In this document: positions 9,545 through 44,958 of the stretch, in pieces
Layout of the letters: each line of letters starts with the position of its first letter
Numbering within the stretch: the stretch's first letter is position 1
NCBI GenBank assembly: GCA_022563395.1
Contig: JADFNM010000001.1
Coordinates: 178,830 to 242,829, forward strand
Source: Patescibacteria group bacterium
Lineage (GTDB): Bacteria > Patescibacteriota > Minisyncoccia > Minisyncoccales > UBA10102
DNA length: 64,000 bases
Reading direction: 5' to 3'
Made by a program: the position numbers and the translations under genes
Notes under the pieces: model-generated
Told to the model about the DNA's origin: nothing
The model's input: only the letters and a program-made list of their open reading frames with translations
Database searches by the model: none

Positions 9545-9639
9545 TTCCTTAACGAAATTAAGTTATCCACACCTAAATGAGATTTAGTTTTAAGGGATGC
9601 TCTTTACTTTTACTCCATTTTTGGTAGGATAGGGGACGT

Positions 9640-9960
9640 ATGGCAGAGATTGCTGTTATTAAAACCGGAGGCAAGCAATATATTGTGCGCCCCGGGCAAA
9701 AAATCAAGGTAGAAAAACTCCCCAAGAAAGAAGGAGCTGAAGTTGTATTTAGCGAGGTATTGCTTTTGGACGATGGCAAGAAAACAGAGATTGGTACTCC
9801 TAAAGTAACGGGAGCTAAAGTAAAAGGGAAAATACTTAAACAGAGAAAGGCAAAAAAGGTTATCGTCTTTAAGTTTAAGGCAAAGAAACGTGAGCAAACA
9901 AAAAAAGGGCACCGTCAGCCCTATAGCGAAGTAGAAATTCTCAAGATTGAGACAAAGTAA
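9640..9960 (+). CDS. rplU: 50S ribosomal protein L21
   Basis: Begins MAEIAVIKTGGKQYIVRPGQKIKVEKL and has a basic C-terminal half. Confidence 0.9.
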   Translation: MAEIAVIKTGGKQYIVRPGQKIKVEKLPKKEGAEVVFSEVLLLDDGKKTEIGTPKVTGAKVKGKILKQRKAKKVIVFKFKAKKREQTKKGHRQPYSEVEILKIETK

Positions 9961-10012
9961 GAACCCTTCGCTTCGCTCAGGAACCTTGATTTCTCACTTT
10001 GTTCAAAATTGA

Positions 10013-10041
10013 AGAGGGCTGCCTGAAAAGGTCAGCCCTCT
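10013..10041. terminator. Probable bidirectional terminator hairpin (9-bp stem AGAGGGCTG/CAGCCCTCT)
   Basis: Perfect 9-bp stem with an 11-nt loop between the convergent rplU and 10076-10474 genes. Weak T-tract. Confidence 0.45.
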
Positions 10042-10075
10042 AGAGTGCCGTACAGAACGTTACGGAGAGTTAGTG

Positions 10076-10474
10076 TTAATAGAGGGGAACGTCTTTGTAC
10101 GCTGAATCGTCCCTGCGTGCCCGGGCAACAAGCTCAAGCTCAACTGGCTGCCACTCACCTTCTACTCGAGCCACTGCAAAGAAGGTGACCGGCTCATGCC
10201 CAATGAGCATTCCGAATGCACTGCCAGCGGGCACTGGTACCATACACAGGAACGTGGCCCCATCATGCGCAACATATCCCACGTAGCCCTCTTGTAAGGA
10301 TGTAACCCTGAGTATGGCGACGGTCTTCCATCTCCATAGGACGCCCGAGACGATACTCAAGGATCCTGTTGTGGGGCCTACTTTGGGGTCACCGGCACAG
10401 GAAATGCCGTGAACAACGTCTCCCTCGTATTTTTTCCAGTTCCACGGCGAAAGAACTCTCATTACGAACCGCAT
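10076..10474 (-). CDS. Hypothetical protein; GC-rich and compositionally foreign (ORF also opens at TTG 10573)
   Basis: The ATG at 10474 is preceded by GGAGGGAGGGAAG. GC is about 55-58% against about 43% in the neighbours. No recognisable motif. Confidence 0.45.
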   Translation of the reverse strand: MRFVMRVLSPWNWKKYEGDVVHGISCAGDPKVGPTTGSLSIVSGVLWRWKTVAILRVTSLQEGYVGYVAHDGATFLCMVPVPAGSAFGMLIGHEPVTFFAVARVEGEWQPVELELVARARRDDSAYKDVPLY

Positions 10475-10584
10475 ATCTTCCCTCCCTCCTGGGTATTTTC
10501 TTTTTGGCTTTATAACCTTTACATTCTCCAGGTTCGTCAATAAAACACTAGCACTTTTTGTGGTATTTGTCAACCATTAGTGCT

Positions 10585-10623
10585 TAAACGAGATTTAGTT
10601 TGGGAAAACTAAATCTCGTTTAG
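10585..10623. repeat. RPE-like palindromic element (TAAACGAGATTTAGTT...AACTAAATCTCGTTTA)
   Basis: 16-bp inverted arms. Member of the CCTAAACGAGATTTAGG family seen about 15 times in this window. Confidence 0.8.
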
Positions 10624-10629
10624 GAAACA

Positions 10630-11232: not shown

Positions 11233-11240
11233 TCATATTG

Positions 11241-11278
11241 CCTAAACGAGATTTAGGAGCTCCTAAATCTCGTTTAGG
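11241..11278. repeat. Perfect 38-bp palindrome CCTAAACGAGATTTAGGAGCTCCTAAATCTCGTTTAGG
   Basis: Lies between the recR start and the dnaB stop. A near-identical copy is at 47768-47805. Confidence 0.85.
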
Positions 11279-11287
11279 CGATAATGG

Positions 11288-12679: not shown

Positions 12680-12830
12680 AGTAGAACTATCATAGCCATT
12701 CTGGAAAGGTTTGGCAAGAACAGTAATCCTTTGTGGATAAATAGCTTGTCGCCATTTGGGGAATGCTGTATGGTACAAAAACAGGTCCTACAATCACCCA
12801 TACGTAAACGCAGACTGAAAGGAGACGGAC

Positions 12831-13619: not shown

Positions 13620-13637
13620 GAACTCCCAGCCCAGGGC

Positions 13638-15053
13638 TTAGGCTCTGGACTTTTCTTTTGGTTTTAAGCGAGGTCCTTTGGAGGTATCGTCAACCTGCCA
13701 CCCTTTCTTTAAGAGCATTTTTCGTAACTCGTCTGCCTTTTGCCACTGCTTGGCTTTTCGATACTTATCGCGTTGTTCTGCTAACTTAAGAATATCTAAT
13801 GGGATTATAATTTTTGCCTTGGCAAAGAAAATAAATCCAAAAATCTTGTCTGCCTCTTTTAAAAAGGCGAGGATTGCTTTTGAGTCTTTGAAAGAAAGCT
13901 TTCCCGCTGCCATCATGGTGTTGCCGTGGTTTATTAACTCAAAGAGGATAGAAATGGCTTTGGGAGTGTTGAAATCATCTTCCAATGCTTTTTTGAATCT
14001 TTCCCGCACTTCTTTCAAAAACCCAGTGTGTCCTAAATCTCGTTTAGGAGAACTTAGAGCTTTTAATTTATCAACAAACTCATCAATGTGTGCTAGTTCC
14101 CGCTTTGTCTGTAAAAGCAGTTTGTCTGAATAATCAATAGGGGAACGATAATGGGTTTTGAGTACCAGGAGTCGAAGCATTCGGGAAGAATGTGCTTTCA
14201 AGAAGTCTTTGATGGTAATAAAGTTGCCCAGGGATTTGGACATCTTTTCGCCTTCTACTGTCAAAAACCCAGAATGCATCCAGTGCTTTGCCATGGGTTT
14301 TTTGCCAGAGATGGCCTCCATTTGAGCAATCTCTGCTTCATGGTGGGGAAAAATGAGATCTTGAGCCCCCCCGTGCAGCTCGTACTGAACGCCGAAGCGC
14401 TTCTCTGTCATGGCGGTATCTTCAATGTGCCAGCCAGGGCGTCCCCGCCCCCAAGGGCTCGGCCAAGCGGGGTCTGACCCCGCTTTTGCTTCAAATTTCC
14501 ACAAGGCAAAGTCACCCTTATTCCGTTTGTGTATTGATTCATCAATACGGGAAACCGCATCTTCTGCCTGAAGAGAGGTTCTGCCAGAGAGCTTACCGTA
14601 ATCCTTGAACTTTAAGATATCATAATACAAGCCATCTTCCTTAATCTCATAGGCATATCCTTTTTGCACCAACCGCTTTATCTGGGTGATAATCTCTTGG
14701 ATATGTTCGGTGGCCCTGACATACTTGCTTACGCTTTTAATGCCCAGGGCCTTCATGTCTTTTAAGTACTCCTTCTCAAATCTCTTTGCTAAGGCCTTTG
14801 GAGTAACCCTGGTTCTTTTAGCCCGTTGAATAATCTTGTCGTCAATATCGGTAATGTTCTGCAGATAGTCTACCCCGTACCCTTCAAACCTTAAAAACCG
14901 CACAAAAGCGTCAAAAGAGATATAGGTTCTGGCATGACCAAGGTGCGAAAAGTCGTATACGGTGGGGCCACACACAAAAAGAGAGATTTTCTTTTTTGGT
15001 CTGGTTTTTAGGGGCTCTTTTTTTCTTGAAAGCGTGTTGTAGAGCTTTATCAT
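13638..15053 (-). CDS. cysS: Cysteinyl-tRNA synthetase
   Basis: HIGH motif HLGHARTY and KMSKS motif GEKMSKSLGN. Contains an in-frame palindromic element encoding SPKRDLGH. Confidence 0.9.
   Translation of the reverse strand: MIKLYNTLSRKKEPLKTRPKKKISLFVCGPTVYDFSHLGHARTYISFDAFVRFLRFEGYGVDYLQNITDIDDKIIQRAKRTRVTPKALAKRFEKEYLKDMKALGIKSVSKYVRATEHIQEIITQIKRLVQKGYAYEIKEDGLYYDILKFKDYGKLSGRTSLQAEDAVSRIDESIHKRNKGDFALWKFEAKAGSDPAWPSPWGRGRPGWHIEDTAMTEKRFGVQYELHGGAQDLIFPHHEAEIAQMEAISGKKPMAKHWMHSGFLTVEGEKMSKSLGNFITIKDFLKAHSSRMLRLLVLKTHYRSPIDYSDKLLLQTKRELAHIDEFVDKLKALSSPKRDLGHTGFLKEVRERFKKALEDDFNTPKAISILFELINHGNTMMAAGKLSFKDSKAILAFLKEADKIFGFIFFAKAKIIIPLDILKLAEQRDKYRKAKQWQKADELRKMLLKKGWQVDDTSKGPRLKPKEKSRA
14053..14069. 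repeat. CCTAAATCTCGTTTAGG element inserted in frame within cysS
   Basis: 17-bp palindrome core. On the coding strand it reads PKRDLG, in frame with the cysS ORF. Confidence 0.75.
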
Positions 15054-15117
15054 GTTTCACTATTGTATCACAGCACCAAGGTTTGAAAAATGCCTCATTT
15101 TTTGCTAGTATTGCTGC

Positions 15118-16598: not shown

Positions 16599-16603
16599 TC
16601 ATT

Positions 16604-16677
16604 GCGGGATCGTCTAACGGTAGGACATGGCCCTTTGGAGGCCAGTATCTAGGTTCGAATCCTAGTCCCGCAGCCAA
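16604..16677 (+). tRNA. tRNA-Gln (anticodon TTG), CCA encoded
   Basis: U1-A72 acceptor pair, anticodon loop CTTTGGA, T-loop GGTTCGAATCC, discriminator G, and CCA. Confidence 0.75.
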
Positions 16678-16787
16678 CGTGTACGAACAGAGTCAAGAAC
16701 TTTCTTGCTCTTATAATTAATAACAAGATACGGGGTATTGAAATGGACTTTTCCCTAGTCTAATGGTATAATAACTTACATAAGATT

Positions 16788-17024
16788 ATGCTGGAAAAAG
16801 AATTAAAATATTTTATTGATAATCAAAAAGAACTCGTAGCTAAATACGAGGGAAGATTTTTAGTGATTAGGGACCAAAAAGTTCAAGGTGTTTATAACAC
16901 AGAAATAGAAGCATACAACGAAGCTAAAAATAAGTTTGAACTAGGAACCTTTTTGATACAGAGAGCTCTTTCTGGTAAAGAAGGCTACACCCAGACTTTT
17001 CATTCTCGTGTAAGCTTTCCTTAG
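16788..17024 (+). CDS. Hypothetical 78-aa protein, translationally coupled to the retropepsin-like gene
   Basis: Its stop is 2 nt before the start of the next ORF. No recognisable motif. Confidence 0.45.
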   Translation: MLEKELKYFIDNQKELVAKYEGRFLVIRDQKVQGVYNTEIEAYNEAKNKFELGTFLIQRALSGKEGYTQTFHSRVSFP

Positions 17025-17026
17025 CC

Positions 17027-17590
17027 ATGCAAGATGCCTTTACTACAAGATATAAAGGACTGACACAAGTATTACACACACAAATAGGTGTGTGTTTGCC
17101 TTATACCAAAGAAGAAATAGAAATTAACAAAATTCAACTCAAAGAATATCTTGCAATCTGGGACACAGGAGCAACTCATTCAGCTATAACCAAGAAAGTT
17201 GCAGATGAGCTTGGATTAAAACCAACAGGTCTGGTTGATGTAAGACATGCTAAGGGATTGTCTAAAACCAATACTTACTATGTTAATATTGAGCTACCAA
17301 GCCATCTAATGATTGGCAATGTACGCGTAACAGAGGTTGAACTTATTCCAGACGCTAATACTTCAGATGACCAGCAACCACAAATTTTGATTGGTATGGA
17401 TATCATTGGTTTAGGTGATTTTGCAGTAACTAACTATAAAGGAAATACTATTCTTACATTTCGCACCCCCTCTATTGAAGAGATAGATTTTGTACCAGAG
17501 GCAAAGGAAGACAATATCATGGAAGGTGGAAATAGCCACGCACGTAAAGTTCAAAGAGCTAAAAAACGTAGAAGAGATAAGAAGAGATAA
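17027..17590 (+). CDS. Retropepsin-like aspartic peptidase (clan AA) with a basic C-terminal tail
   Basis: DTGA active-site motif (AIWDTGATHSAIT), an ILIGMDIIGLG flap-like region, and a KRRRDKKR tail. Confidence 0.6.
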   Translation: MQDAFTTRYKGLTQVLHTQIGVCLPYTKEEIEINKIQLKEYLAIWDTGATHSAITKKVADELGLKPTGLVDVRHAKGLSKTNTYYVNIELPSHLMIGNVRVTEVELIPDANTSDDQQPQILIGMDIIGLGDFAVTNYKGNTILTFRTPSIEEIDFVPEAKEDNIMEGGNSHARKVQRAKKRRRDKKR

Positions 17591-17635
17591 ATTCTTTACT
17601 TTCTAATAAACTTGTACTGTAAAAACAATCAAAGA

Positions 17636-17668
17636 ATCGCCAAATAGGCGGTTTTTTGGTAAGGTAGA
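17636..17668 (+). promoter_or_regulatory. Conserved hairpin-T6-GGTARRRT promoter module (ATCGCCAAATAGGCGGTTTTTTGGTAAGGTAGAGT), 4 nt before the ATG
   Basis: One of at least 9 copies of CGCCnnnnnnGGCGGTTTTTTGGTAGAAT located 5-20 nt upstream of start codons. Confidence 0.6.
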
Positions 17669-17671
17669 GTT

Positions 17672-17860
17672 ATGAGGGGCATTTACAGCATAACAAAGGG
17701 ACAATTGATTACACTATGGTTTTTTGGAACTATTGGTTGGCTTTTCGCTGGTCTCGTTTTGCTTAATGAAATTATCAGTGCCCTCCTGTATATTTTTTTG
17801 ATTCCGTTTATTCTTATTTTCTATACTATTGGTTGGAGAAATAGTAAAAAGAAAAAATAG
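17672..17860 (+). CDS. Small membrane protein (62 aa, 2 TM)
   Basis: Hydrophobic 62-aa ORF immediately downstream of the promoter module. Confidence 0.45.
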   Translation: MRGIYSITKGQLITLWFFGTIGWLFAGLVLLNEIISALLYIFLIPFILIFYTIGWRNSKKKK

Positions 17861-17900
17861 TGAATAGCAGAGTAGGGGAGAAATAATCTATTATCTACCT

Positions 17901-18494
17901 ATGAAGAGGAAAACTAAAAAAAGTACAGAGCTTACTACTAAGGAAGATTTGGGTAGCGACGAGGGATACTTGGAAAGTGAAGCGGTAGTAAAGCCTCCAG
18001 AAAAAGATAGTTTATTAAAGAGAATCCTATCGAGATTAGGCATGGGCGCCTTAGTCGTTGGTGGTGGCGCACTCTTTAGTGTAATTACTATTTTACAATT
18101 TTTAGTTACTGCTATCATTGGTTTAGGAATGATATGGTGGGCAGTAGTCTTATTTTTAGACGGCTCCATTATTTTGGGCCTATTGGTTCTTTTAATCGGG
18201 ACCCCAATAGCTATTGGATTAACCCACTTTTTCTTTTTCTTCTTCCTGGCGATAGGAATCCTTGCAACGATAATATGGGGAGTTGCTAACCTATTTGGTG
18301 TCGGTCTTTCTTTTGGTAATGCCTGGGATATTATTTGGCTGGTTATTGAGGTAGTGCTGCTTGGGGGTATGGCTTTTCTGGGAGTAAGTGGATTGATTGA
18401 AGCGATAAAAGAAAAGAGGGTAGCAGAGTTTTTTAAAGGAAATTGGTTCTATCTTTTACTCTTTGCATTTCTTTTTTGGTTATTTTTTCTCTAA
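17901..18494 (+). CDS. Hypothetical polytopic membrane protein
   Basis: 197 aa with a charged N-terminus followed by about 5 TM helices. Confidence 0.45.
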   Translation: MKRKTKKSTELTTKEDLGSDEGYLESEAVVKPPEKDSLLKRILSRLGMGALVVGGGALFSVITILQFLVTAIIGLGMIWWAVVLFLDGSIILGLLVLLIGTPIAIGLTHFFFFFFLAIGILATIIWGVANLFGVGLSFGNAWDIIWLVIEVVLLGGMAFLGVSGLIEAIKEKRVAEFFKGNWFYLLLFAFLFWLFFL

Positions 18495-18518
18495 GAGAAA
18501 CCAGTAAAACATCATAGT

Positions 18519-18830
18519 ATGGTCAAAAAAATCTATAGAGCAAATAATAGAGATGGCATTCTTATTGTGTTTGAGGATGGAAAACAAGTCGGTTTAACTG
18601 ATATAATGCGTGGTGTCCTACAGAACACATTCCGTACCCAGTTGGAGAATATAAAAATGCACCCTATCCCTCAGGAAGAAGGGGCATTAGAGACGAGACC
18701 TGATGAAGTAACAGAGGTTATACAAAAAGAAACTGGCTATTATTTAGAGGTTTCGGGAGATAAAGGGGATTATGATATTTCCGTTTCTCCTGAGGAGCTT
18801 AAAACTCTAATTTTTCTTGATGATAAATAA
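18519..18830 (+). CDS. Hypothetical protein (103 aa)
   Basis: ORF with plausible coding composition. Paired with the next ORF across a 2-nt gap. Confidence 0.35.
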   Translation: MVKKIYRANNRDGILIVFEDGKQVGLTDIMRGVLQNTFRTQLENIKMHPIPQEEGALETRPDEVTEVIQKETGYYLEVSGDKGDYDISVSPEELKTLIFLDDK

Positions 18831-18832
18831 AT

Positions 18833-19060
18833 ATGTATCTTGATATTGTTCTCGGTTTTTATAATCGTGCTGATGGTGGCTATGCACCGTGGTTTATGAT
18901 TTTTGAGCGTGATGGAGGTAATACCAGGGAGATTCCATTTGATTGCAAAGAGACTGCTCAATCAGAAAAAGAAGCAATACGCATTGCAAAAGCACACGCA
19001 CTAAAGATACTGGAAGAAAGATACTCCTCATCCGTCCAAGTTCGCTTTAGAGAAAAGTAG
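18833..19060 (+). CDS. Hypothetical protein (75 aa)
   Basis: Immediately follows the previous ORF. Acidic small protein. Confidence 0.35.
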   Translation: MYLDIVLGFYNRADGGYAPWFMIFERDGGNTREIPFDCKETAQSEKEAIRIAKAHALKILEERYSSSVQVRFREK

Positions 19061-19112
19061 GGGATTATCGCACAAAACTATATGCAAAGGTGAACTTGCC
19101 ACCCAATAAAAG

Positions 19113-19130
19113 GGTTCTAACTTCGTCCAG
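19113..19130. repeat. GGTTCTAACTTCGTCCAG boundary motif (copy 1; about 34 bp near-identical to the copy at 19815)
   Basis: CAATAAAAGGGTTCTAACTTCGTCCAGTGCCCC at 19100-19135 versus the same sequence with one mismatch at 19802-19840. The two copies flank the P-loop kinase gene as direct repeats. Confidence 0.7.
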
Positions 19131-19218
19131 TGCCCCCGGCTGCTAATTTTAAGCTTAGATTCTAAGCACCCTATCGTGGAGTTAGAACTATGGGTGATTT
19201 TTTGATAAAGTGAACAAT

Positions 19219-19725
19219 ATGAAAAAGAAATTGAGATTCATCTTACTAAACGGGCCAATAGGTTCGGGTAAATCCACTACTGCCAATCTTCTGCAAAGCA
19301 AATTGAAAAGAACTGCTATATTGAGTGTGGAAGACATTAGACAACTTATTTCTGATTTCAAGCACAACAGAGAAGACCATCTCCTTACGTGGAAAATTAT
19401 CCATAGTATGTGTGATGAATATTTCAAAAATGGAATAAGTGTGTTGCTTGAACAGTCCTATTGTTCCAAAGATAATGTTAATCAATTTCTGCGTCTTGCA
19501 AAAAAGCACAAGTGCTCCATAGGTTTCTATCATCTTCAAGCACCAAGAAGTATTTTACTTGAAAGAATTAAGCAACGAAAGAAAGACCATAAGACTTCAA
19601 AAGCTAAAATAATAAGTAATATTAAAAAACACGAAGAAACGACCTACCCAGACGCTATTGTTATTGATACTTCTGAAATGAAACCGGTCGAAGTCGCTAA
19701 GCTTATTTTGAATGATTTAAAGTGA
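19219..19725 (+). CDS. P-loop NTPase/kinase (AAA_33/zeta-toxin-like nucleotide kinase fold); ORF also opens at GTG 19210
   Basis: Walker A LNGPIGSGKST and about 170 aa, kinase-sized. Flanked by direct repeats. Confidence 0.5.
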   Translation: MKKKLRFILLNGPIGSGKSTTANLLQSKLKRTAILSVEDIRQLISDFKHNREDHLLTWKIIHSMCDEYFKNGISVLLEQSYCSKDNVNQFLRLAKKHKCSIGFYHLQAPRSILLERIKQRKKDHKTSKAKIISNIKKHEETTYPDAIVIDTSEMKPVEVAKLILNDLK

Positions 19726-19814
19726 TTGGAGAAATAGTGTAACGTGGGGTGGGGTAATTTGTGTTAAGATGAGCTCAAACTATAGGCAAACCCTGACTTT
19801 CCTTGCAATAAAAG

Positions 19815-19832
19815 GGTTCTAACTTCGTCCAG
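19815..19832. repeat. GGTTCTAACTTCGTCCAG boundary motif (copy 2)
   Basis: Direct repeat of 19113-19130. Followed by the palindrome GCTTAAACGAGATTTAAGC at 19849-19867 and a promoter module. Confidence 0.7.
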
Positions 19833-19883
19833 TACCCCCTGCCATGATTGCTTAAACGAGATTTAAGCAATATGAGAAAAAGA

Positions 19884-19916
19884 ATCGCCATGCAGGCGGT
19901 TTTTTGATAGAGTAGG
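19884..19916 (+). promoter_or_regulatory. Hairpin-T6-promoter module (ATCGCCATGCAGGCGGTTTTTTGATAGAGT)
   Basis: Same module as at 17636. The ATG at 19920 follows 3 nt after GATT. Confidence 0.6.
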
Positions 19917-19919
19917 ATT

Positions 19920-20195
19920 ATGAAAAAGATTCATTTCTTCCTAGACGAATTCCACCACGGGGCTGTGAACCATGTGGTACATTTTACTGGCTTTACGCTC
20001 CTTGGATATGGATTAGGCATAGAGAACTGGTGGATTGTTATCCTCTCTCCTTTTGTCATGGAGATGGGTCATCTTTACAACTACTCTACGGGTAGAGACA
20101 GACACCATGCTATTCGCATCATTCCAATGCAGATAATAGCATGGCTCATCTTTGTAGGAATCGTATACTTACTTACAAGATTGTTTAGTTCATAG
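19920..20195 (+). CDS. Small membrane protein (91 aa)
   Basis: Hydrophobic helices, with His/Glu residues inside predicted helices. Confidence 0.4.
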   Translation: MKKIHFFLDEFHHGAVNHVVHFTGFTLLGYGLGIENWWIVILSPFVMEMGHLYNYSTGRDRHHAIRIIPMQIIAWLIFVGIVYLLTRLFSS

Positions 20196-20238
20196 AAGTT
20201 AAATTTGGAATATAAAACTCATCACTTAGCCTTATCCT

Positions 20239-20269
20239 GGTTCTAACGTCGTTCACGACACGCAGCTAG
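20239..20269. repeat. GGTTCTAACGTCGTTCACGACACGCAGCTAG boundary motif (left flank of the HExxH gene)
   Basis: A 31-bp near-identical direct repeat recurs at 21636-21666, on the other side of ORF 20315-21577. Confidence 0.7.
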
Positions 20270-20314
20270 TTTTAGAGGTTTGACGTGTTTGTGGATGCTT
20301 TGGTAAAATGAAAT

Positions 20315-21577
20315 ATGGAAAATAATTTTTATAGTAAAGGGCAAAGTTTAGTTGGTATAGCTATTATTTCAGTCATTATTAGCTTAATAGTAATAGGTGG
20401 TTTATATTTTTATTTTTCAAAACAAATCCCAGAAGTGTCTAAAATTTCCGAAAAACAAGCCGAAGAAATAATTCAACCAGAAGAGGTTATTCTTCCATCT
20501 GAAGAGTTACCCAAAGAAGAAATTGCTCCAGAGAAGAAAGTTGTAGAAATCTCAATTAAGGCTCCCAAGGAAACGGAGCTAGAAGCCCCCGCACCCCAAT
20601 CACCGCGCAAACCCTTTCCACCAACTGTTAGGATTGAGGCAAATCCAAGCACAGTGCCATCTGGAACACCAGTTACTCTTTCTTGGACTTCTGAAAACGC
20701 AGATTCTTGTATTGCAAAAGACGATTGGTCAGGATCGTTGGAGCTTTCTGGGCAAAGAACAGTTACTCCTCCTAGATCCATATCATACTATCCTGTAGAA
20801 TGCCGGAATCCATTCGGTATCGCATCATATTCTGTAACTATATATGTAGAGTCTATTGCACCTTTACCCTCAGAGGATGCGCCATTAACACCTAAAGAAG
20901 GATTTAGTCTACTTGTTGTCTTCACTTACGAAGATACACCACTAGATTCTCAGATTAAAGAGGACTTATGTACCGGATCTGGCACAAATAAGTTTTCCTA
21001 TCTTCCAAAATGGTTCAAACGTGAAGCAAGCAGATACGGCGTTTCATTCTCAATGACGGTACAATGTCTTGATCAACAAGTTGAACTATCGCAGGATGTT
21101 ATTGAGACAACAAACACCTGTAAGGGTGGTCTCGGAGGTACATTCACTTGTCCATATGACAAAACAAAAGCAAAAAGTTATCTCGAACAAACCATTCCAT
21201 TACTACAGAATTATGATGTTGTGACGATTATGCATTATAAGCCTTATTCTTATGAATTTGGGGCTGATTCAGACGGTTCTGGGGGAAAATATAATTATAT
21301 ATACCTCGCAAAAGGCCCAGTTATCGACGGAGTCCAATATTATAACCCCAATGTAGGAAACGAAGGCAACCATGCTTTTGCTGCTGCACATGAAAGTCTC
21401 CATAATCTAGGAGCATCTGACTACTACTTTCAGGGTTCCGGATACAAATGTTTGATAGAATCTGATCCTACTTTAATTTATAATAGCAGGTATATAATGT
21501 GTGCTGCTGCTAGGGAAGATCCTTTTAGTAGTTATGTAATTTCTCCTGAGACTGCAAAAGAACTTGGATGGAGATAA
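20315..21577 (+). CDS. Membrane-anchored protein with a Pro/Glu-rich linker, an Ig/CARDB-like domain and a C-terminal HExxH (zincin-like) domain
   Basis: N-terminal TM, an EEIAPEKK linker, a PSTVPSGTPVTLSWTSENADSC beta-sandwich-like segment, and AAAHESLHNLGASDYY. Confidence 0.5.
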   Translation: MENNFYSKGQSLVGIAIISVIISLIVIGGLYFYFSKQIPEVSKISEKQAEEIIQPEEVILPSEELPKEEIAPEKKVVEISIKAPKETELEAPAPQSPRKPFPPTVRIEANPSTVPSGTPVTLSWTSENADSCIAKDDWSGSLELSGQRTVTPPRSISYYPVECRNPFGIASYSVTIYVESIAPLPSEDAPLTPKEGFSLLVVFTYEDTPLDSQIKEDLCTGSGTNKFSYLPKWFKREASRYGVSFSMTVQCLDQQVELSQDVIETTNTCKGGLGGTFTCPYDKTKAKSYLEQTIPLLQNYDVVTIMHYKPYSYEFGADSDGSGGKYNYIYLAKGPVIDGVQYYNPNVGNEGNHAFAAAHESLHNLGASDYYFQGSGYKCLIESDPTLIYNSRYIMCAAAREDPFSSYVISPETAKELGWR

Positions 21578-21635
21578 ATTCAAGCTATATTAAGAAGTCG
21601 TATGACGAGAATGTGAGCTCCTCACATACCAAAAG

Positions 21636-21666
21636 GGTTCTAACTTCGTCCACGACACGCAGCTAG
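21636..21666. repeat. GGTTCTAACTTCGTCCACGACACGCAGCTAG boundary motif (right flank)
   Basis: Direct repeat of 20239-20269. Confidence 0.7.
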
Positions 21667-21690
21667 CAGTTCTGAATAGCAAAAATCGCA

Positions 21691-22074
21691 ATGCAAGAAA
21701 ACAAACTAACGATTCAAATTAACAAACCTATTGTAGAGGTTTTTGCTTTTACGACGAATCCGCAAAACACGCCTTTGTGGCTTGACTCAGTAGTTACTGA
21801 ACAAGTGAATGAGTGGCCAGCAAGACAAGGGAGTATTTATAAGAATCAAGATACAGATGGAAACTGGTCAGAGTATGTCGTAAGTGAGTGGAGAGAAAAC
21901 GAAATGTTTGTATGGGACAAAAAGAATAGTAATTACCATGTTAGGTATATCTTTACGCCAGTAGACGAAAATATCACAGAACTTGAATACTATGAATGGG
22001 TAGATACAGGAGAGCTTGATAAACCCTTTACCCAGAAAATACTAGAAAAGCTAAAGCGCGTTTTGGAAAATTAG
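21691..22074 (+). CDS. Hypothetical protein, possibly SRPBCC/START-like fold
   Basis: 127 aa, about the size of a small ligand-binding fold. Weak match only. Confidence 0.3.
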   Translation: MQENKLTIQINKPIVEVFAFTTNPQNTPLWLDSVVTEQVNEWPARQGSIYKNQDTDGNWSEYVVSEWRENEMFVWDKKNSNYHVRYIFTPVDENITELEYYEWVDTGELDKPFTQKILEKLKRVLEN

Positions 22075-22240
22075 TTCTAAATGAGACACGAGATACTACG
22101 CCTATCCAGTGTCTCATTTGTCTCATTTTGTGCTAAAATGACCCCGACCGAGACGGGTAGATGAGACACCCCTAGAAAGCCCCAGAATCCCTCTTAAACC
22201 TCATGTTCCAGACCAAGGGTGCTAAAGCCAAACATAAAAC

Positions 22241-22810
22241 ATGATATCTCACCCATCTATCAAGGCCATCTTTATACCAGGAAATGATGGCGGTACAACG
22301 CAGGACCAGTGGTTTCCGTATGCCAAACGTGAACTTAAAAAGCTTGGTCTTGCAGTAAGGGCAGAAACTTTTCCTGACCCCATTCTTGCAAGGGAACAAT
22401 ACTGGATCCCTTTCTTGAAAGAGCTTGGCGCTGACGAGAAGACCATCCTTATAGGACATTCATCGGGAGCAGTCGCTGCAATGAGATTTGCAGAGCAGAA
22501 CAAAATTCTGGGATCGGTGTTGATTGGGGCCTGCTACACTGACCTTAATGACGAGATGGAAAAGAAAAGCGGGTATTACGACCGCCCCTGGGATTGGGAG
22601 GCAATCAAAGCGAATCAAGAGTGGATTATCCAATATGCCTCTATTGACGATCCATACATTCCTGTTGAGGAAGCTCGGCATATCCATACACAACTTGGTA
22701 CAGAATATTACGAGTATAAAGACCAGGGACACTTTGGAGAACCCACAAGGCCTAAACCAGAGTTTCCAGAGATGATAGAGGCAATCAGAAAAAAGCTATC
22801 CCAGGACTAA
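22241..22810 (+). CDS. Alpha/beta hydrolase, RBBP9/YdeN-like serine hydrolase
   Basis: 189 aa with nucleophile-elbow GHSSG (ILIGHSSGAVAA) and downstream Asp/His residues. Confidence 0.6.
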   Translation: MISHPSIKAIFIPGNDGGTTQDQWFPYAKRELKKLGLAVRAETFPDPILAREQYWIPFLKELGADEKTILIGHSSGAVAAMRFAEQNKILGSVLIGACYTDLNDEMEKKSGYYDRPWDWEAIKANQEWIIQYASIDDPYIPVEEARHIHTQLGTEYYEYKDQGHFGEPTRPKPEFPEMIEAIRKKLSQD

Positions 22811-22920
22811 GATTCTCTGCACCAGCATTCACGCAACGGGACATTCGTCTCTGAGAGACTCAGTCTCGATGAGTTCTAACATCGTCCAAGCCCCGCAGCA
22901 TACTAATACAAGAAGCCAAT

Positions 22921-22990
22921 GGTTCCTAAATGAAATTAAGGATTCTTTAATTTCATTTAGGAGATATGCGCTCTAAATAAGGGGGACAAA
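22921..22990. repeat. Type-B palindromic element (GGTTCCTAAATGAAATTAAGGA...TTAATTTCATTTAGGAGATATGCGCTCTAAATAAGGGGGACAAA)
   Basis: Family recurs at 9545, 31388, 33579, 39471 and 44907. The 30 bp upstream (CTAATACAAGAAGCCAATGGTTCC) also matches the copy at 44888. Confidence 0.8.
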
Positions 22991-23108
22991 ACTTGTGTAA
23001 ATCGGATGTGCACAACAAGGATTTTGAGAATATCATTAACTTTTTAGGCAAATGATTTATAATAAAGATGATAGATAAAAATGAACAGGATGATAACAAC
23101 TTAGAAAA

Positions 23109-24422
23109 ATGAGAGCAAAAATCCCCTTTATCTTCATTGTTGTTTCCCTTATGTTTGTCAGCATGTTTGTCGGCGCTTTTTTAGTCGGAGAGGTTAAGGC
23201 GCAGACAAAAGATTCCCAAGAGCTGTCAAAGGTTTTAGTGATTGACATTGAAGGAGAGATTCGCGCCGGCACGGTTCAGTTTGTAAAGCGCGCTTTGACA
23301 AAGGCCCAAGCTGGCGACTTTGAACTTTTTCTTATTCAACTGAACACCCCAGGTGGGCTCTTAAAGGCCACCGAAGAGATCAGCCGGCTTTTGCTGGACA
23401 GCAAAATACAAACCGCCGTGTTTGTTCATAAAAACGGCGGCTGGGCATTTTCGGCCGGCACTTTTATTCTTCTGTCTGCAGAAATTGCAGTTAGCCATCC
23501 CAATGCCTCAATTGGTGCGGCTCAGCCGCGCGCTTTGGGTATTGGGGAAGTCGCGGAGCCTGATGAAAAAATTATTAAAGCCTCAAGCATTTGGATGAAA
23601 TCATTAGCTGAAGCTCGCGGACGAAACCTCGAGGTCGCGGAAAAATTCGTCCTGGAAAATCTAACATTAAGCGGTAAAGAGGCACACGAACAAAATATTA
23701 TTAATTTCACCGCCGTATCTTTGGATGAACTTCTCAACAAGCTTAAATTTAAAGACGCCGCCATAGAAGAAGTAACGCCAAATCTCTTAGAGCAAATCCT
23801 GTCTTTTCTTTCCATTTCTTTTCTAATTCCGCTTTTACTTGGCATTGGGTCTTTAGGGTTGTTCTTTGTATTTCGCACAGGCGAGGTGGAAATTGGAATT
23901 TTCGCTATCGCTGCTCTTCTTTTAGGACTGTGGGGAATGGGGGCTATCAATCTTTCGGTGCTGGGAGCAACGCTTTTGTTCTTTGGTATTGCTCTTATTA
24001 TTCTTGAAATTTTTGTGATGCCCGGATTTGGTGTTTTTGGCATAGCTGGAACCATCGCCTTTCTTTTTGGGATACTCACCTTTGCCCAAGAGCCGTTCTT
24101 ACCAAGCGTTTTTACCAATGCAGCTTTTTGGTTTGTGATGGGGGTGACGTTGGCTGTTTCTGTGTTTTTCATTGTTCTTGGCAGATTGTCGCTTAAAACC
24201 CTAAGGGTAAAGGCCAGGGCTGGTCCGGAGGCTCTCACGGGAGAAACAGCTGTTGTAACCGAAACACTGCATCCCTACGGCAAGGTAAAGATTAACCGTG
24301 AGGACTGGGTGGCAAAAAATATTTCAGATAAAGAAGTTATTGAAGTGGGAGAGAAGGTAAGGGTTGTAAATATCCAGGGAAATACTATAATAGTAAAAGG
24401 GTCGAAAACTAGCATGCTGTAA
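23109..24422 (+). CDS. NfeD-family membrane-bound serine protease (ClpP-class)
   Basis: Signal/TM segment, ClpP-like domain LNTPGG...GWAFSAGTFILLSAE, TM segments, and a C-terminal OB-like beta domain. Confidence 0.75.
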   Translation: MRAKIPFIFIVVSLMFVSMFVGAFLVGEVKAQTKDSQELSKVLVIDIEGEIRAGTVQFVKRALTKAQAGDFELFLIQLNTPGGLLKATEEISRLLLDSKIQTAVFVHKNGGWAFSAGTFILLSAEIAVSHPNASIGAAQPRALGIGEVAEPDEKIIKASSIWMKSLAEARGRNLEVAEKFVLENLTLSGKEAHEQNIINFTAVSLDELLNKLKFKDAAIEEVTPNLLEQILSFLSISFLIPLLLGIGSLGLFFVFRTGEVEIGIFAIAALLLGLWGMGAINLSVLGATLLFFGIALIILEIFVMPGFGVFGIAGTIAFLFGILTFAQEPFLPSVFTNAAFWFVMGVTLAVSVFFIVLGRLSLKTLRVKARAGPEALTGETAVVTETLHPYGKVKINREDWVAKNISDKEVIEVGEKVRVVNIQGNTIIVKGSKTSML

Positions 24423-24437
24423 AAACTTGTAAATATT

Positions 24438-25205
24438 ATGGAATTTTTGTTTAATTTATTTTTCTCAACTGGAGGAATTATTGTTATCGTCGCCATCATT
24501 CTTTTCTCAGCTGTAAAGATTGTCAGGGAATATGAGCGGGCAGTTATTTTTCGCTTGGGACGCTTGGTGGGCACGCGTGGACCCGGTCTTTTTCTGCTTA
24601 TCCCAATGATTGAAAAAATGGTCAAGCTTGATCTTCGGATTATTACCCTTGATGTGCCGGCCCAAGAGGTTATCACCCGCGACAACATACCCATAACGGT
24701 TGACGCGGTGCTGTATTTTAAGGTTTCTGACCCTATTCGTGCAGTGGTTGAGGTTGAAAACTTTCTGAAAGCAACTTCGCAAATCGCCCAGACATCGCTT
24801 AGGGGAGTTGCCGGCGAGGCGGCTTTTGACGAGATTCTGGCCGAGCGTGAGAAGATTAACACCAAGCTTCACAAAATTATTGACATTGCCACGGACCCTT
24901 GGGGAATTAAAGTCTCGGCGGTGGAAATAAAGCACGTTGAGGTGCCAGAAGCCATGCAGCGGGCAATTGCCAAACAGGCGGAAGCTGAGCGGACAAGACG
25001 GGCAAAAGTAATTTTGGCCGAGGGAGAATTTCAGGCGGCTCAAAAACTAAAGGATGCCGGTGAAATTCTCGGCGCCAACCCAATTGTGTTTCGCTATCTT
25101 GAAACCATAGCAGAAGCGGCTAAAGAAAAAAGCAATACCATCATCTTCCCGGCCGAGATGCTTGACTTGGTCAAAAAAATCTCCCGAAAATCGGACATGC
25201 AGTGA
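24438..25205 (+). CDS. SPFH/band-7 protein (stomatin-like), cognate partner of NfeD
   Basis: N-terminal TM, band-7 core (VPAQEVITRDNIPITVDAVLYFKV), and a coiled-coil C-terminus. Classic nfeD-stomatin operon. Confidence 0.8.
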   Translation: MEFLFNLFFSTGGIIVIVAIILFSAVKIVREYERAVIFRLGRLVGTRGPGLFLLIPMIEKMVKLDLRIITLDVPAQEVITRDNIPITVDAVLYFKVSDPIRAVVEVENFLKATSQIAQTSLRGVAGEAAFDEILAEREKINTKLHKIIDIATDPWGIKVSAVEIKHVEVPEAMQRAIAKQAEAERTRRAKVILAEGEFQAAQKLKDAGEILGANPIVFRYLETIAEAAKEKSNTIIFPAEMLDLVKKISRKSDMQ

Positions 25206-28474: not shown

Positions 28475-28704
28475 CAGCGCTACAATTTAAAGGCGCAGGC
28501 AGGAGATATGCGCCTCTAGGCAAGGAGAGAACAAAACTTGGGGCGGGTCGTCTTAGCGGAGAATCCGGCCCGTGGCCCTACTATTTACACGTACTGTTTT
28601 GTGCTATTATATCAATGTAGAACGATTTGAGATTTAGCAGGCTGTAATAGTAAATAAAAGGTTGAACTGCCTGCTAAGATTGAGTAACTACCACTTAGAA
28701 ATAT

Positions 28705-38998: not shown

Positions 38999-39108
38999 AG
39001 TTAGATCCCGATAGGTAGGAGGGTGTGATCTCTTATTATACTAACCAATCAATCGCCAAACAGGCGGTTTTTTGGTAGAGTAAGGATGGCGAATTTCAGA
39101 GGAGAGAA

Positions 39109-39339: not shown

Positions 39340-39402
39340 GGGTTCATACCATGATAGGGCGGTGAGATGATATCAATACCCGCTTTTCTTTTACACAAAA
39401 CA

Positions 39403-39420
39403 GGTTCTAACATCGTCCCA
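39403..39420. repeat. GGTTCTAACATCGTCCCA boundary motif copy
   Basis: Matches the consensus GGTTCTAAC[AT]TCGTCC. Followed by palindromic elements. Confidence 0.6.
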
Positions 39421-39440
39421 TAGGGAGAGCCATTGTTGCT

Positions 39441-39545
39441 TAAACGAGATTTAAGCAATATCCATTGAAGTTAATGGTTCCTTAATTTCATTTAGGAGAT
39501 AATCACTAGAATCAATCATGCTTAAACGAGATTTAAGCAGCATGG
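39441..39545. repeat. Composite of three palindromic elements (type A, type B, type A)
   Basis: GCTTAAACGAGATTTAAGC ... GGTTCCTTAATTTCATTTAGGAGATAATC ... GCTTAAACGAGATTTAAGC. Confidence 0.8.
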
Positions 39546-39552
39546 GGAAAAA

Positions 39553-39588
39553 GAATCGCCAGTACGGCGATTTTTTGGTAGAATCAAA
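39553..39588 (+). promoter_or_regulatory. Hairpin-T6-GGTAGAAT promoter module before acpS
   Basis: ATCGCCAGTACGGCGATTTTTTGGTAGAATCAAAT, then ATG. Confidence 0.6.
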
Positions 39589-39589
39589 T

Positions 39590-39922
39590 ATGATTATGAA
39601 ACTCGGGACTGATATCGTACATATTCCAAGATTTGAAAAGACATTGAGAGAAAGTCGGGAATACTTTGAACAGAATGTGTTCTGCCCCGAAGAATGGGCA
39701 GATTCATCAATAGAGAAATTAGCTGGAAGATTTGCAGCAAAGGAAGCAACACTCAAGGCCTTGGGTATTAAAGCTGGCCGCTGGCAAGAAATTTGCGTCA
39801 AAAATTCAGAAGATGGAAAACCGTTCCTTGCTTCCTTCCTAATGCAGAAAAAATGGAAACATGAACTTTCCATTTCTCACGACGGTGAATACGCAATTGC
39901 TGTCGTAGTATTCTATCGGTGA
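39590..39922 (+). CDS. acpS: Holo-[acyl-carrier-protein] synthase (ORF opens at 39518 inside the repeat)
   Basis: MIMKLGTDIVHIPRF...FAAKEATLKALG...ISHDGEYAIAVVV, the 4'-phosphopantetheinyl transferase signature. Confidence 0.8.
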   Translation: MIMKLGTDIVHIPRFEKTLRESREYFEQNVFCPEEWADSSIEKLAGRFAAKEATLKALGIKAGRWQEICVKNSEDGKPFLASFLMQKKWKHELSISHDGEYAIAVVVFYR

Positions 39923-39944
39923 TTCCCCCATGTTGAGCAGGGAA

Positions 39945-42488: not shown

Positions 42489-42575
42489 ATATTTGTTTTT
42501 GTATTAACCTATGGTATAATATGTATTCTCTTGTAAATTAACCATTGGCATCAACTATGATGCTGTTAATATATT

Positions 42576-43781
42576 ATGGATGAAAGCTCGCAACGCGAGC
42601 GGATACGGCTCCGCAAACAATTGCTCAAAGAAATTCAAACCCTCAAAGACCGAAGAGGATTTCTAAGAGCCGGCCTACCCAACTATAATCGTTTATTTGG
42701 AAGAGATTCTTTGATTGCCGCTTGGCAATTATTAGATTGGAATCCGGGAATCTGCAAATCAACTTTAGAAATTCTCTCTCAACATCAGGGTAAACTGTTT
42801 AACGACGAAAGAGAAGAAGAGCCCGGTAAGATAATCCATGAAATGGATTTGGAGGAGAGTTGGCATCCTGACCACTACTTTCCCTTTCCTTACTATGGCT
42901 CTGTTGACTCCACTCTTCTTTACCTGATTCTTTTTGCTTTTTATTTCAAAAAAACAAAAGATCGAAAGTTTCTGCAGGAGCATTGGGAAAATGTCCTCAT
43001 GGCTTTGCACTGGCTAGAAGAATGTGGTGATAAGGATAAGGACTATTTTATTGAGTACAAAAGAAAAAATCCAAACGGACTTTTTCATCAGGGATGGAAA
43101 GATAGTTTTGAGAATCATTTGAAAATAAAGCCACCTGTGGCTATTGTAGAAGTTCAAGGATATCACTACTTGGCCTTAGAAGAGATTGCCAACTTGGCAG
43201 ATGTAAGAAGAGACTTTGATTTGAGAGAGAAACTCAAAGAAAGGGCAGAAAACTTGAAAAAAGAGTTTAATAAAAAATTCTGGATGGATGAGAAAAATTA
43301 CTTTGCATTGGGATTAGACGGAAAAAAGAGACAGAGGAAAGCAATTACTTCCAATCCCGGACGTTGTCTTTTTACGGGTATTATAGATGATGAGAAAAAA
43401 CAGAAAATAGTGGAAAGGCTATTTGAAAAAGATATGTGGACACCTTTTGGCATCCGCACTCATTCAACGCAAGAACCGGATTTTGACCCTCAAGCCTATC
43501 ACCTGGGGTCCGTTTGGCCTCACGATAACTGGATAATAGCTCAAGGTTTGAAGAAATACGGCTTCTTCAATGAATATCAAAAAATAAGACAAGCTTTATT
43601 TGCAGCACACAGAGAACTTGGTTTTCTTCCTGAGCACTACGGGGTAATTGATGGAAAAGTTATTCCAATCTCTACCGCAGCTTACCCCCAGGCTTGGGCA
43701 ACCTGTGCCCTGTTTAACTTTCTCGGTTTGCAGATTCATGAGAAAATCCTCAGGATTCCCTTAAGGATTTTTCGCTGGTAA
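42576..43781 (+). CDS. Glycogen-debranching-enzyme-like (amylo-alpha-1,6-glucosidase, six-hairpin glycosidase fold) protein
   Basis: 401 aa with GFLRAGLPNYNRLFGRDSLI and later W/D/E-rich segments typical of (alpha/alpha)6 glycosidases. Confidence 0.45.
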   Translation: MDESSQRERIRLRKQLLKEIQTLKDRRGFLRAGLPNYNRLFGRDSLIAAWQLLDWNPGICKSTLEILSQHQGKLFNDEREEEPGKIIHEMDLEESWHPDHYFPFPYYGSVDSTLLYLILFAFYFKKTKDRKFLQEHWENVLMALHWLEECGDKDKDYFIEYKRKNPNGLFHQGWKDSFENHLKIKPPVAIVEVQGYHYLALEEIANLADVRRDFDLREKLKERAENLKKEFNKKFWMDEKNYFALGLDGKKRQRKAITSNPGRCLFTGIIDDEKKQKIVERLFEKDMWTPFGIRTHSTQEPDFDPQAYHLGSVWPHDNWIIAQGLKKYGFFNEYQKIRQALFAAHRELGFLPEHYGVIDGKVIPISTAAYPQAWATCALFNFLGLQIHEKILRIPLRIFRW

Positions 43782-43788
43782 TCTTTTT

Positions 43789-44820
43789 TCACCTCTTCTG
43801 ACGGAGAATATCTTTGTACAGTTGCTCATAGTTATCCACCATGGTCTGCATGGAAAAATTCTCGACAACATGTTCACGACAGCGCCGCCTTAAGATAGCG
43901 TGAAGATTCTTTAAGGCTCGAACAGCCTCCTCCTTGGTATCAACAAGAAATCCTGTTTCGCCATCTTTGATTAACTCTGGCATAGCGCCGGATCTCGCAG
44001 CAATAACCGGAGTGCCGCAAGCCATGGCCTCAATAACTACAAGACCAAAGGGTTCTTGTCTTTTAAATACTGGAAAGAGTAAACCTTTTGCTTCCCTAAG
44101 AAGTCTTACTTTCTTTTTAAAATCTGCAACTCCCACAAATTGAATCTGTTTCCCGTCGATTAAAGGTTTGATTCGATACTCAAAGTAGTCTGCACTCCTT
44201 GGAAAGATTGGACCTGCAATTATAAGCTTCTCCCCGGCCATCTTCGCAATTTCAATAGCATCTGGTAACCCCTTGTCAGGAGCAATAAGAGATAACCAAA
44301 GAAGGTAATCTTTTGGTCTCGCATTAAAGCGATACCTAGCAATATCAATACCGTTGTAGATTCTTTTCGCGATATGTAACCCTGGTGCGGATTTCTTCTG
44401 ATCATCCGAAATTGCTACATAATGAATATTCGGGAATTTTTTGTATATAATGGTATTTTCTTCGGTAAGGGGACTATGGATAGTACTGACGACAGGAGGC
44501 CTAAAAAAATTGCTGAAGGGGGCTGTGGAATATTCCCAATGGTCATGAATGATGTCAAATTCATCCTGTCGTTCCAAAAGTTCTTTACAGAGCAAAGCGA
44601 ATACAGCATAGGTATACCAAACACCAGCGTCTTTATAGACACCTGTAGGCCATATGGGGATTAATTTCGCCTTCGTCTTTGAATCGGCGGTAGCGAACAG
44701 GGTTACCTCATGCCCTCTCTTTACTAGCTCCTCAGTAACAAGAGAAGTTATAAGAGTGCTCCCCCCGTAGGTTTGGGGAGGGACCTCAAACCAGAGAGGG
44801 GCTACTTGTGCAATACGCAT
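43789..44820 (-). CDS. Glycosyltransferase family 4
   Basis: GT-B fold with N-terminal GGSTLIT and the C-terminal EPFGLVVIEAMACGTPVIA motif. Confidence 0.75.
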   Translation of the reverse strand: MRIAQVAPLWFEVPPQTYGGSTLITSLVTEELVKRGHEVTLFATADSKTKAKLIPIWPTGVYKDAGVWYTYAVFALLCKELLERQDEFDIIHDHWEYSTAPFSNFFRPPVVSTIHSPLTEENTIIYKKFPNIHYVAISDDQKKSAPGLHIAKRIYNGIDIARYRFNARPKDYLLWLSLIAPDKGLPDAIEIAKMAGEKLIIAGPIFPRSADYFEYRIKPLIDGKQIQFVGVADFKKKVRLLREAKGLLFPVFKRQEPFGLVVIEAMACGTPVIAARSGAMPELIKDGETGFLVDTKEEAVRALKNLHAILRRRCREHVVENFSMQTMVDNYEQLYKDILRQKR

Positions 44821-44906
44821 AAGTTATCACTCATTATGGGGCAGAATGGAATTTTTGTCCACTCTGTGTCCACGGGGATACCAGCACACTAATACAAAAA
44901 GCCAAT

Positions 44907-44958
44907 GGTTCCTTAACGAAATTAAGGAAATATGCGCTTTCTAGATAAGGGGAACAAA
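44907..44958. repeat. Type-B palindromic element copy (overlaps the pcm stop region)
   Basis: GGTTCCTTAACGAAATTAAGGAAATATGCGCTTTCTAGATAAGGGGAACAAA. The upstream 25 bp matches the copy at 22901. Confidence 0.75.

Follow-up and report, generated by a model that had tools for sequence, protein, structure and literature searches.

Type B palindromic repeats in a Patescibacteria group bacterium: a probable REP- or MITE-like hairpin family accompanied by a putative pcm gene-end remnant

A stretch of 64,000 nucleotides from contig JADFNM010000001.1 of a Patescibacteria group bacterium (assembly GCA_022563395.1), hereafter called the window, contains several copies of a short palindrome, type B, which at some sites are accompanied by a common tail and a common upstream flank. 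The reading that we favor, with a probability of approximately 0.55, is that type B is a palindromic repeat similar to repetitive extragenic palindromic (REP) sequences and their doublets (REPINs), or to miniature inverted-repeat transposable elements (MITEs), and that a few duplication events carried it to other sites along with passenger DNA from the junction between a tRNA-Gln gene and pcm, the gene for protein-L-isoaspartate O-methyltransferase. The long flanks would then lie outside any functional element.

The palindrome CCTTAA-N5-TTAAGG, reported in a first-pass annotation of this DNA, was strongly over-represented. With at most one mismatch, CCTTAANNNNNTTAAGG occurred six times in the window (9547, 22925, 31392, 33603, 39480, and 44911), against 0.32 expected, and none of 100 shuffles reached this count. 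A partial copy that had been placed at 58340 was also real (58344-58360, one mismatch to the family pattern). Type B, with stem CCTTAA and loop YGAAA, was found to be one variant of a family of 17-bp palindromic units. The generalized unit CCTWAR-N5-YTWAGG occurred 24 times in the window, compared with 3.85 expected and with 24 reached in none of 100 shuffles, and most units were located in intergenic DNA, which makes up approximately 12% of the window. The earlier separation of type B from type A (CCTAAA-CGAGA-TTTAGG) did not hold up: both occur in the same single and doublet forms, and, because of this shared architecture and of hybrid copies (9547/9572 and L160:9019), they appear to constitute one lineage-specific family. 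Addition of 10 kb on each side of the window (L160 and L164) yielded one extra B/A hybrid doublet, at the stop codon of ClpB, and no further tail.

The copies at 22921, 33579, and 31388 are inverted doublets, in which arm 2 is the reverse complement of arm 1 at a distance of 3 nt and each arm is itself CCTTAA-N5-TTAAGG. Those at 44907, 39471, 9545, and 58344 are single units. A head-to-head doublet forms a near-perfect, hairpin-forming palindrome of 37-40 bp. When 10 doublets were aligned, 92% of cells were paired in the long hairpin (arm 1 with arm 2) and 8 of its 19 pairs had changed on both sides, including columns that correspond to the loops of the short hairpins. This pairing value was matched by none of 500 shuffles. 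The short hairpins were also supported by the doublet alignment.

Presence of a conserved tail was confirmed for the copies at 22921, 33579, and 44907, in which it is complete (22960-22990, 33618-33648, and 44926-44958, respectively); the other copies retain 12 nt or less. At 31388 the tail is reduced to its first 12 nt (GGAGATATGCGT) and at 39471 to GGAGATA, while the copies at 9545 and 58340 have none; 9545, 39471, and 58340 are thus bare single units. A search with GGAGATATGCGC, allowing one mismatch, gave matches at 22960, 28502, 31427, 33618, and 44926. The match at 28502 belongs to a previously overlooked copy that consists of a tail without a palindrome (28501-28540, plus strand; AGGAGATATGCGCCTCTAGGCAAGGAGAGAACAAAAC) and resembles the flanks in an 'empty' state.

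The tail has a recognizable counterpart in a protein-coding gene. Read on the minus strand, the tail of copy 44907 is TTTGTTCCCCTTATCTAG, which encodes F V P L I followed by a stop codon and represents the native 3' end of pcm (44941-45546, minus strand; Pfam PCMT, 6.5e-48). The tail comprises the last 18 nt of this gene and 15 nt of its 3' flank. Among the 120 closest Patescibacteria PCMT homologs, a single sequence (P0147), truncated before this point, lacked the C-terminal GF.FVPL motif, and this near-universal terminus indicates that the coding sequence in the tail is ancestral to pcm. In the relative L167, an identical pcm end is followed by AAAGCGCATGTCTCC and then by a terminator-like hairpin and a T-run, with no type-B unit; in L166 and L168 an ordinary terminator is located 3' of pcm. 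Judged from these alignments, the tails at 22960 (FVPLI-stop), 33618 (FVPHV-stop), and 28502 (degenerate), as well as those in the relatives L151 and L169, are copies of the pcm 3' end, with 44882-44958 as the probable source locus. Homology of the copies to pcm ends 18 nt inside the gene, and tblastn and blastn searches of pcm against the window yielded no pcm fragment apart from this 18-nt tail. Between the orthologous copies in the window and L169, 5 of 31 tail positions differ (16%, versus 17% at third codon positions). Since this divergence approximates the synonymous-site rate, the tail shows no sign of constraint. The earlier suggestion that it might encode a small RNA or a binding site was therefore not supported, and as a gene-end remnant the tail gives no reason to be pursued as a small RNA. 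A shared coding function of small open reading frames (ORFs) that begin in the tail (AAGGGG-N7-TTG) was likewise rejected, as the peptides at 22990 and 28538 are unrelated.

On the other side of the palindrome, the upstream flank shared by the copies at 22902 and 44888 was 20/21 identical, reached approximately 31 nt, and also occurred in L151 and L169. Its origin is apparent in L169, where a tRNA-Gln gene is followed, approximately 25 nt downstream, by a second, partial tRNA-Gln 3' half that ends in GAATCCTAGTCCCGCAGCA and continues directly into TACTAATACAAAAAGCCAATGG and the type-B doublet. The window counterpart of this remnant is a degenerate tRNA-Gln 3'-half copy (D10 module) at 22872-22901, which forms the start of the upstream flank. 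Copy 44907 retains the last few nucleotides of the remnant (CCAGCAC). The copies at 22921 and 44907 therefore have in common exactly a spacer, bordered by a few tRNA nucleotides at one end and by 18 nt of pcm at the opposite end, and those at 33579, 31388, and 28501 carry shorter and differing stretches of the same flanks. Such a mosaic is more readily explained by tracts of recombination or gene conversion than by an element whose ends are fixed. In L169 the partial 3' half itself (L169:176-236) contains a 30-nt T-loop insertion composed of two small GC-rich hairpins (CTCGCCAGAGGCGAG and TCCGCCTTTGGCGGA).

Consistent with the first-pass proposal of a composite longer than the palindrome, both flanks are shared by 22890-22995 and 44882-44958, and the whole tail is shared by 33563-33651. 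Profile searches with nhmmer aligned the composite copies with E-values of 1e-13 to 1e-31. The substantial copies recovered were 22890-22995, 33563-33651, 31372-31445, 44882-44958, and, just upstream of the window, L160:9003-9054; those within the window are all on the plus strand. The first of these (22890-22995, E = 2e-31), upstream of an NfeD-SPFH operon, consists of the tRNA-Gln-3'-like remnant with flank (22872-22922), arm 1 (22925-22941), spacer ATT, arm 2 (22945-22961), and the pcm-derived tail (22960-22990). Its long hairpin pairs at 17/17 positions, with a folding energy of -26.6 kcal/mol (z = -3.7), and orthologous copies are present in L151 and L169. The doublet at 33563-33651 (E = 8e-27; -31.2 kcal/mol, z = -5.3) has arms at 33583-33599 and 33603-33619 and a tail of the same pcm origin at 33618-33648. 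The doublet at 31372-31445 (arms 31392-31408 and 31412-31428) is directly followed by a terminator-plus-promoter module (31451-31480). In 44882-44958, a single unit (44911-44927) is enclosed by upstream flank (44888-44908) and tail (44926-44958).

Comparison of orthologous loci allowed the rates of change of the individual parts to be distinguished. The closest named relative by NfeD was 'Patescibacteria group bacterium AH-259-L07' (78% identity). Between the window and L169, the NfeD coding sequence was 90.4% identical (83% at third codon positions), the upstream flank about 97%, the 125 nt between tail and NfeD start 96.8%, and the tail 84%. Arms and spacer were 68% identical, with half-site changes at 11 of 34 positions. 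Of the arm differences, five correspond to exactly complementary base pairs of the long hairpin (arms CCTAAATGAAATTAAGG/CTTTAATTTCATTTAGG in the window and CCTTAGCGAGACTAAGG/CCTTAGTCTCGCTAAGG in L169). Counted as events, the arm changes occurred at about the neutral rate. Complementarity of the arms is thus maintained while their sequence is not, a pattern that is fitted equally well by selection on the hairpin and by palindrome-correcting repair. The NfeD leader next to this copy (window 22991-23108; L169:330-442; and L151) was more conserved than NfeD third codon positions, which indicates strong constraint; it could contain a TTG-started ORF of 20 codons (LCKSDVHNKDFENIINFLGK) or a regulatory RNA.

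Filled and empty orthologous sites were observed at three loci. Upstream of NfeD, type B is present in the window, L151, and L169, and absent in L152 (91% identical), L149, L150, and L153. In the 3' flank of pcm it is present in the window and absent in L166, L168, and L167. The third site lies within a MurC-like gene (50235-51614), in which a type-A doublet with a 15-nt duplication (51429-51475) creates an in-frame insertion of 21 amino acids (MMPKRMMPKRDLGFPKSRLGA) in a surface loop; this insertion is filled in the window only and absent from the nine closest representatives. Further units are located in frame in other essential genes: in MurL (57435-57475 and 57599-57615), CysRS (14032-14048), and Fmt (47973-47989), the last in a variable loop that is 3 amino acids longer than in L167. 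For type B itself, a five-row profile of the reading frame with its natural flanks retrieved no carrier among 5.8 billion proteins, and type B is therefore not known in coding sequence. No family units were detected in 21 kb of L149 and L150, and scans of a genome collection, metagenomes, and viral contigs found no relative outside this narrow clade, with matches at chance level only. Use of GGTTCYTWAMNGAAATTAAG on the genome collection gave 23 scattered single matches, approximately the chance level, of which the sole Patescibacteria match (L016) was in unrelated sequence. The loose pattern AGGARATATGCGCN{0,2}TCTA matched at least 120 metagenome loci; among the matches listed, all were chance and lacked the palindrome and the rest of the tail. 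Two viral-contig scans, for type B and type A, gave three chance matches each.

All copies had been described as intergenic and at gene boundaries. The second part was borne out insofar as copies are located between a stop codon and the next promoter, with a layout that differs from copy to copy. The first requires amendment: the tail of 44907 overlaps the last five codons and the stop codon of pcm (44941-44958), and the unit at 58344-58360 (plus strand), in the 15-nt gap between MurL and MurD, supplies the TAA of MurL (58347-58349). The copy at 9547-9588 (plus strand, no tail) consists of a type-B unit (9547-9563), TTATCCACA, and a type-A unit (9572-9588), and its 5' flank (AATAG, versus AATGG in other copies) holds the TAG of RmuC (9542-9544). 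Inclusion of the ClpB stop at L160:9022-9024 brings to three the genes that stop inside a unit or its conserved flank (CTCCTTAA twice and AATAGTTCC once), which suggests that palindromic units may have replaced or trimmed these gene ends. A perfect DnaA-box 9-mer, TTATCCACA occurs three times in the window versus 0.48 expected, and lies as a spacer beside palindromic units (AAGTTATCCACACCTAAAT) at 9563-9571, 29929-29937, and L160:9051, with an imperfect version at L160:5741; it may simply represent one more repeat module and not a site for DnaA.

The unit at 39480-39496 (plus strand) is flanked by two type-A' palindromes and lies between a D10 module and a terminator-plus-promoter module. Both this copy (39471) and 31388 are upstream of such a separate canonical module, and copy 44907 lies between pcm and a glycosyltransferase promoter. 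Copy 33579 lies 200 nt past the real terminator of the upstream gene (33340-33372), and its tail overlaps the predicted -35 box of an SPFH gene, with the promoter-like TAGACA-16-TGnTACAAT at 33632-33659. A cluster of short repeats (ATGTTAGACATCGGATGTCTAACATACGATGTCTAAGATACTAACATACG) is located just upstream, at 33500-33560. The terminator-plus-promoter module itself is a 45-nt unit with a terminator hairpin (TCGCC-N4-5-GGCG), a T-run, and an extended -10 box (TTTTTTGGTAGAAT), found directly 5' of genes at 17631-17675, 19879-19923, 29968-30012, 31445-31489, 39047-39091, and 39550-39594. Its sequence identifies it as a putative conserved terminator-plus-promoter cassette.

The simplest history consistent with these observations would start from a hairpin that lay once between convergent tRNA-Gln and pcm genes. 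The tRNA-Gln/pcm spacer, with a few nucleotides of each gene, would then have been duplicated to two to four other intergenic sites, after which one junction copy would have lost pcm and the other the tRNA. Copying may have proceeded by segmental rearrangement or by palindrome-seeded recombination or gene conversion with varying tract lengths. Whether as single-stranded DNA or as RNA, the doublet could fold into a hairpin; where transcribed, it would act at most as a 3'-end stem-loop or bidirectional terminator, and the tail would have no function of its own.

Several observations weigh against a REP- or MITE-like origin. The ORFs of the window and the genes predicted in 20 kb of flanking DNA included no Y1_Tnp domain, REP-associated tyrosine transposase (RAYT), or transposase of another type; this search covered approximately 84 kb, and the genome measures at least 671 kb. 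Target-site duplications were not consistently found: the doublets at 11241, 47768, 51432, 57438, and L160:7030 are not bordered by any consistent direct repeat, and the bases next to them merely prolong the palindrome. No insertion/deletion polymorphism was present over approximately 22 kb in contigs from other samples that are 99.9% identical, and the NfeD copy is older than the split of three lineages, which speaks against recent movement. The two fullest copies both precede SPFH-family operons, as an operator would. Finally, the compensated changes could be explained by palindrome correction at the DNA level and hence are no proof of function, and the mode of flank copying is inferred.

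REP doublets that form hairpins (REPINs) in Pseudomonas and E. coli are mobilized by RAYT transposases, each encoded by a single-copy gene with units on either side (Bertels and Rainey, 2011; PMC3116915). Type B shares with them the dense, mostly extragenic distribution of short palindromic units, the inverted doublets with short spacer, long hairpin, and compensatory changes on both sides, the single units that resemble decayed doublets, and vertical persistence at orthologous sites. It differs in its units, which are 17 bp and AT-rich, in the in-frame location of some of them in essential genes, and in its host, an ultra-small Patescibacteria genome.

A conserved GTAG-type 5' tetranucleotide is a defining feature of REP sequences. 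The units in the window start with CCTWAR and no 5' GTAG was present in the aligned copies; because of this difference and because no RAYT was seen in the 84 kb, membership of the REPINs is not claimed. Rickettsia palindromic elements (RPE) measure 100-150 bp and are tolerated as in-frame insertions in conserved proteins. The MurC loop and the units in MurL, CysRS, and Fmt are reminiscent of these elements, although unit (17 bp) and doublet (38 bp) are smaller and type B matched no protein. MITEs such as the Correia elements of Neisseria and pneumococcal RUP and BOX are small, non-coding, intergenic inverted repeats that can carry or disrupt promoters and terminators. The filled and empty sites upstream of NfeD, 3' of pcm, and in the MurC loop are MITE-like, but no target-site duplication was seen, no parent insertion sequence is known, and the long shared flanks are recognizable host DNA (pcm end and tRNA-Gln downstream region) rather than element termini. 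Paired DNA uptake sequences (Neisseria DUS and Pasteurellaceae uptake signal sequences, USS) can act as terminators, and Patescibacteria are thought to depend on DNA uptake. Like these, the type-B motif is short, over-represented, present in both orientations, often in inverted pairs at gene ends and sometimes in genes. Unlike a receptor-recognized signal, it is not conserved among close relatives (window, L169, and L151), and the copy in MurC was inserted rather than produced by recoding of existing sequence.

Between tRNA-Gln(UUG) (16603-16676, plus strand) and the NfeD copy, the window contains a low-GC stretch (38%; 16603-22901) with approximately 11 small genes, most of which are followed by a GGTTCTAACnTCGTCCA...GCAGC module that can be aligned to the tRNA-Gln 3' half. 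D10 modules follow single genes at 19113, 19815, 20239, 21636, and 22872, with further modules at 31315, 32356, and 39403, and they precede the type-B copies at 22921, 31388, and 39471 by 30-70 nt. The corresponding interval contains no genes in L169 (L169:77-250) and two in L151 (L151:209-1519). It looks like a hot spot of single-gene cassettes at a tRNA-derived site. Interpretation of D10 (GTTCTAAC...TCGTCCA, in one case with closing GTTAGAAC) as an integron attC site was dropped, as it aligned better with the tRNA-Gln 3' half, a relation made evident by L169. The attC-like closure GTTAGAAC occurred only in the D10 copy at 19113-19190, and the type-B composites, unlike attC, lack a closing RYYYAAC...GTTRRRY pair.

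This arrangement is also the basis of the alternative that deserves most consideration, although we regard it as unlikely: that type B represents remnants of attachment-site (att)-like recombination sites, in which hairpin and flanks are the distal junction of cassettes or islands that integrate at the tRNA-Gln 3' end and the palindromes are recombinase-binding inverted repeats. The variable gene content between tRNA-Gln and NfeD and the positions of the D10 modules, both after single genes and close to three type-B copies, agree with it. No integrase was found in the window, however, and the nearest tyrosine recombinase, approximately 4 kb past its end, is of the Xer type. Units of the family are also found within MurC, MurL, CysRS, and Fmt, as well as between unrelated genes that have no neighboring D10 module. 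Moreover, recombinase core sites are usually conserved, whereas the arm sequence differs between orthologs. A bolder proposal, which we consider less likely still, is that the 17-bp units of types A and B form an active, lineage-specific DNA family whose hairpins are kept perfect by a hairpin-recognizing enzyme and which inserts in frame into essential genes. Together with the D10 repeats, they would delimit the single-gene cassettes between tRNA-Gln and NfeD, as a form of cassette capture unrelated to integrons.

The palindrome could, in principle, be the dimer-binding site of a small regulon, that is, an operator for a regulator of membrane-stress (NfeD/SPFH) genes, but this is improbable. 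The two fullest copies do precede an NfeD-SPFH operon (23109-25205) and an SPFH gene (33706-34512), in the latter case with the tail over the predicted -35 box. Yet the maintenance of complementarity during sequence drift is hard to square with a sequence-specific operator: the half-site differs at nearly a third of its positions between orthologs with 97%-identical flanks. In addition, the same operons lack the element in L152, L149, L150, and L153, and, for SPFH, L167; further copies, in either orientation, are found after RmuC, MurL, ClpB, and pcm; and 24 units per 64 kb are excessive for a specific regulator.

More improbable again is a structured small RNA or cis-regulatory RNA formed by hairpin and tail, as had been proposed originally. 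A stable hairpin (z = -3.7 to -5.3) with covariation was indeed found, but the hairpin alone is maintained and the tail, which evolves neutrally, corresponds to reversed pcm coding sequence. Both strands of the type-B copies fold about equally well. Loop orientation relative to the transcribed strand, tabulated by eye, was mixed (seven versus five single units) and therefore weighs against a strand-specific RNA function. Promoter or terminator contexts were not common to the copies, and Rfam gave no match at any type-B copy, either at the gathering score or at E ≤ 1.

The least probable explanation is that the copies are purely ancestral transcription terminators, similar hairpins having arisen independently at gene ends without copying: despite their location between stop codons and promoters, the AAAGC/GCUUU that encloses the 44907 hairpin on the pcm transcript ahead of a U-rich stretch, and the terminator-like hairpin with T-run at the same place in L167, an independent origin is impossible for identical non-hairpin flanks of 20-33 nt, including pcm codons, at several loci, the stems are AT-rich without an adjoining T-run (unlike the GC-rich stem directly followed by a T-run of intrinsic terminators, canonical examples of which adjoin 31388 and 39471), none was called by the terminator scan, 33579 lies well beyond the real terminator of the upstream gene, and family units also occur inside coding sequences.

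If the REP- or MITE-like family were confirmed genome-wide, it would provide a marker of strain and rearrangement history in an uncultivated lineage and a clean case of a palindrome kept perfect by paired changes amid sequence drift. It would also call for caution in annotation: stop codons are provided by some units, MurC and MurL have gained loops from them, and the gene-end fragments carried along mimic conserved non-coding motifs. Streamlined genomes of approximately 1 Mb, to which those of the candidate phyla radiation belong, would not be expected to contain dispersed repeats at high density, and a search of the literature on repeats, integrons, REPINs, and MITEs in Patescibacteria retrieved no relevant description. 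Type B as such is a real but fairly ordinary feature. The main value of the finding is negative, in that derivation from pcm accounts for the conserved tail. More interesting leads are offered by the units inserted in frame and by the hot spot of cassettes at tRNA-Gln.

A further repeat was observed shortly after the MurC-like gene, where the ORF at 51736-52215 is internally repetitive (51829-52193), with periodicities of 39 and 78-81 nt, 6-11 copies, and no Pfam match.

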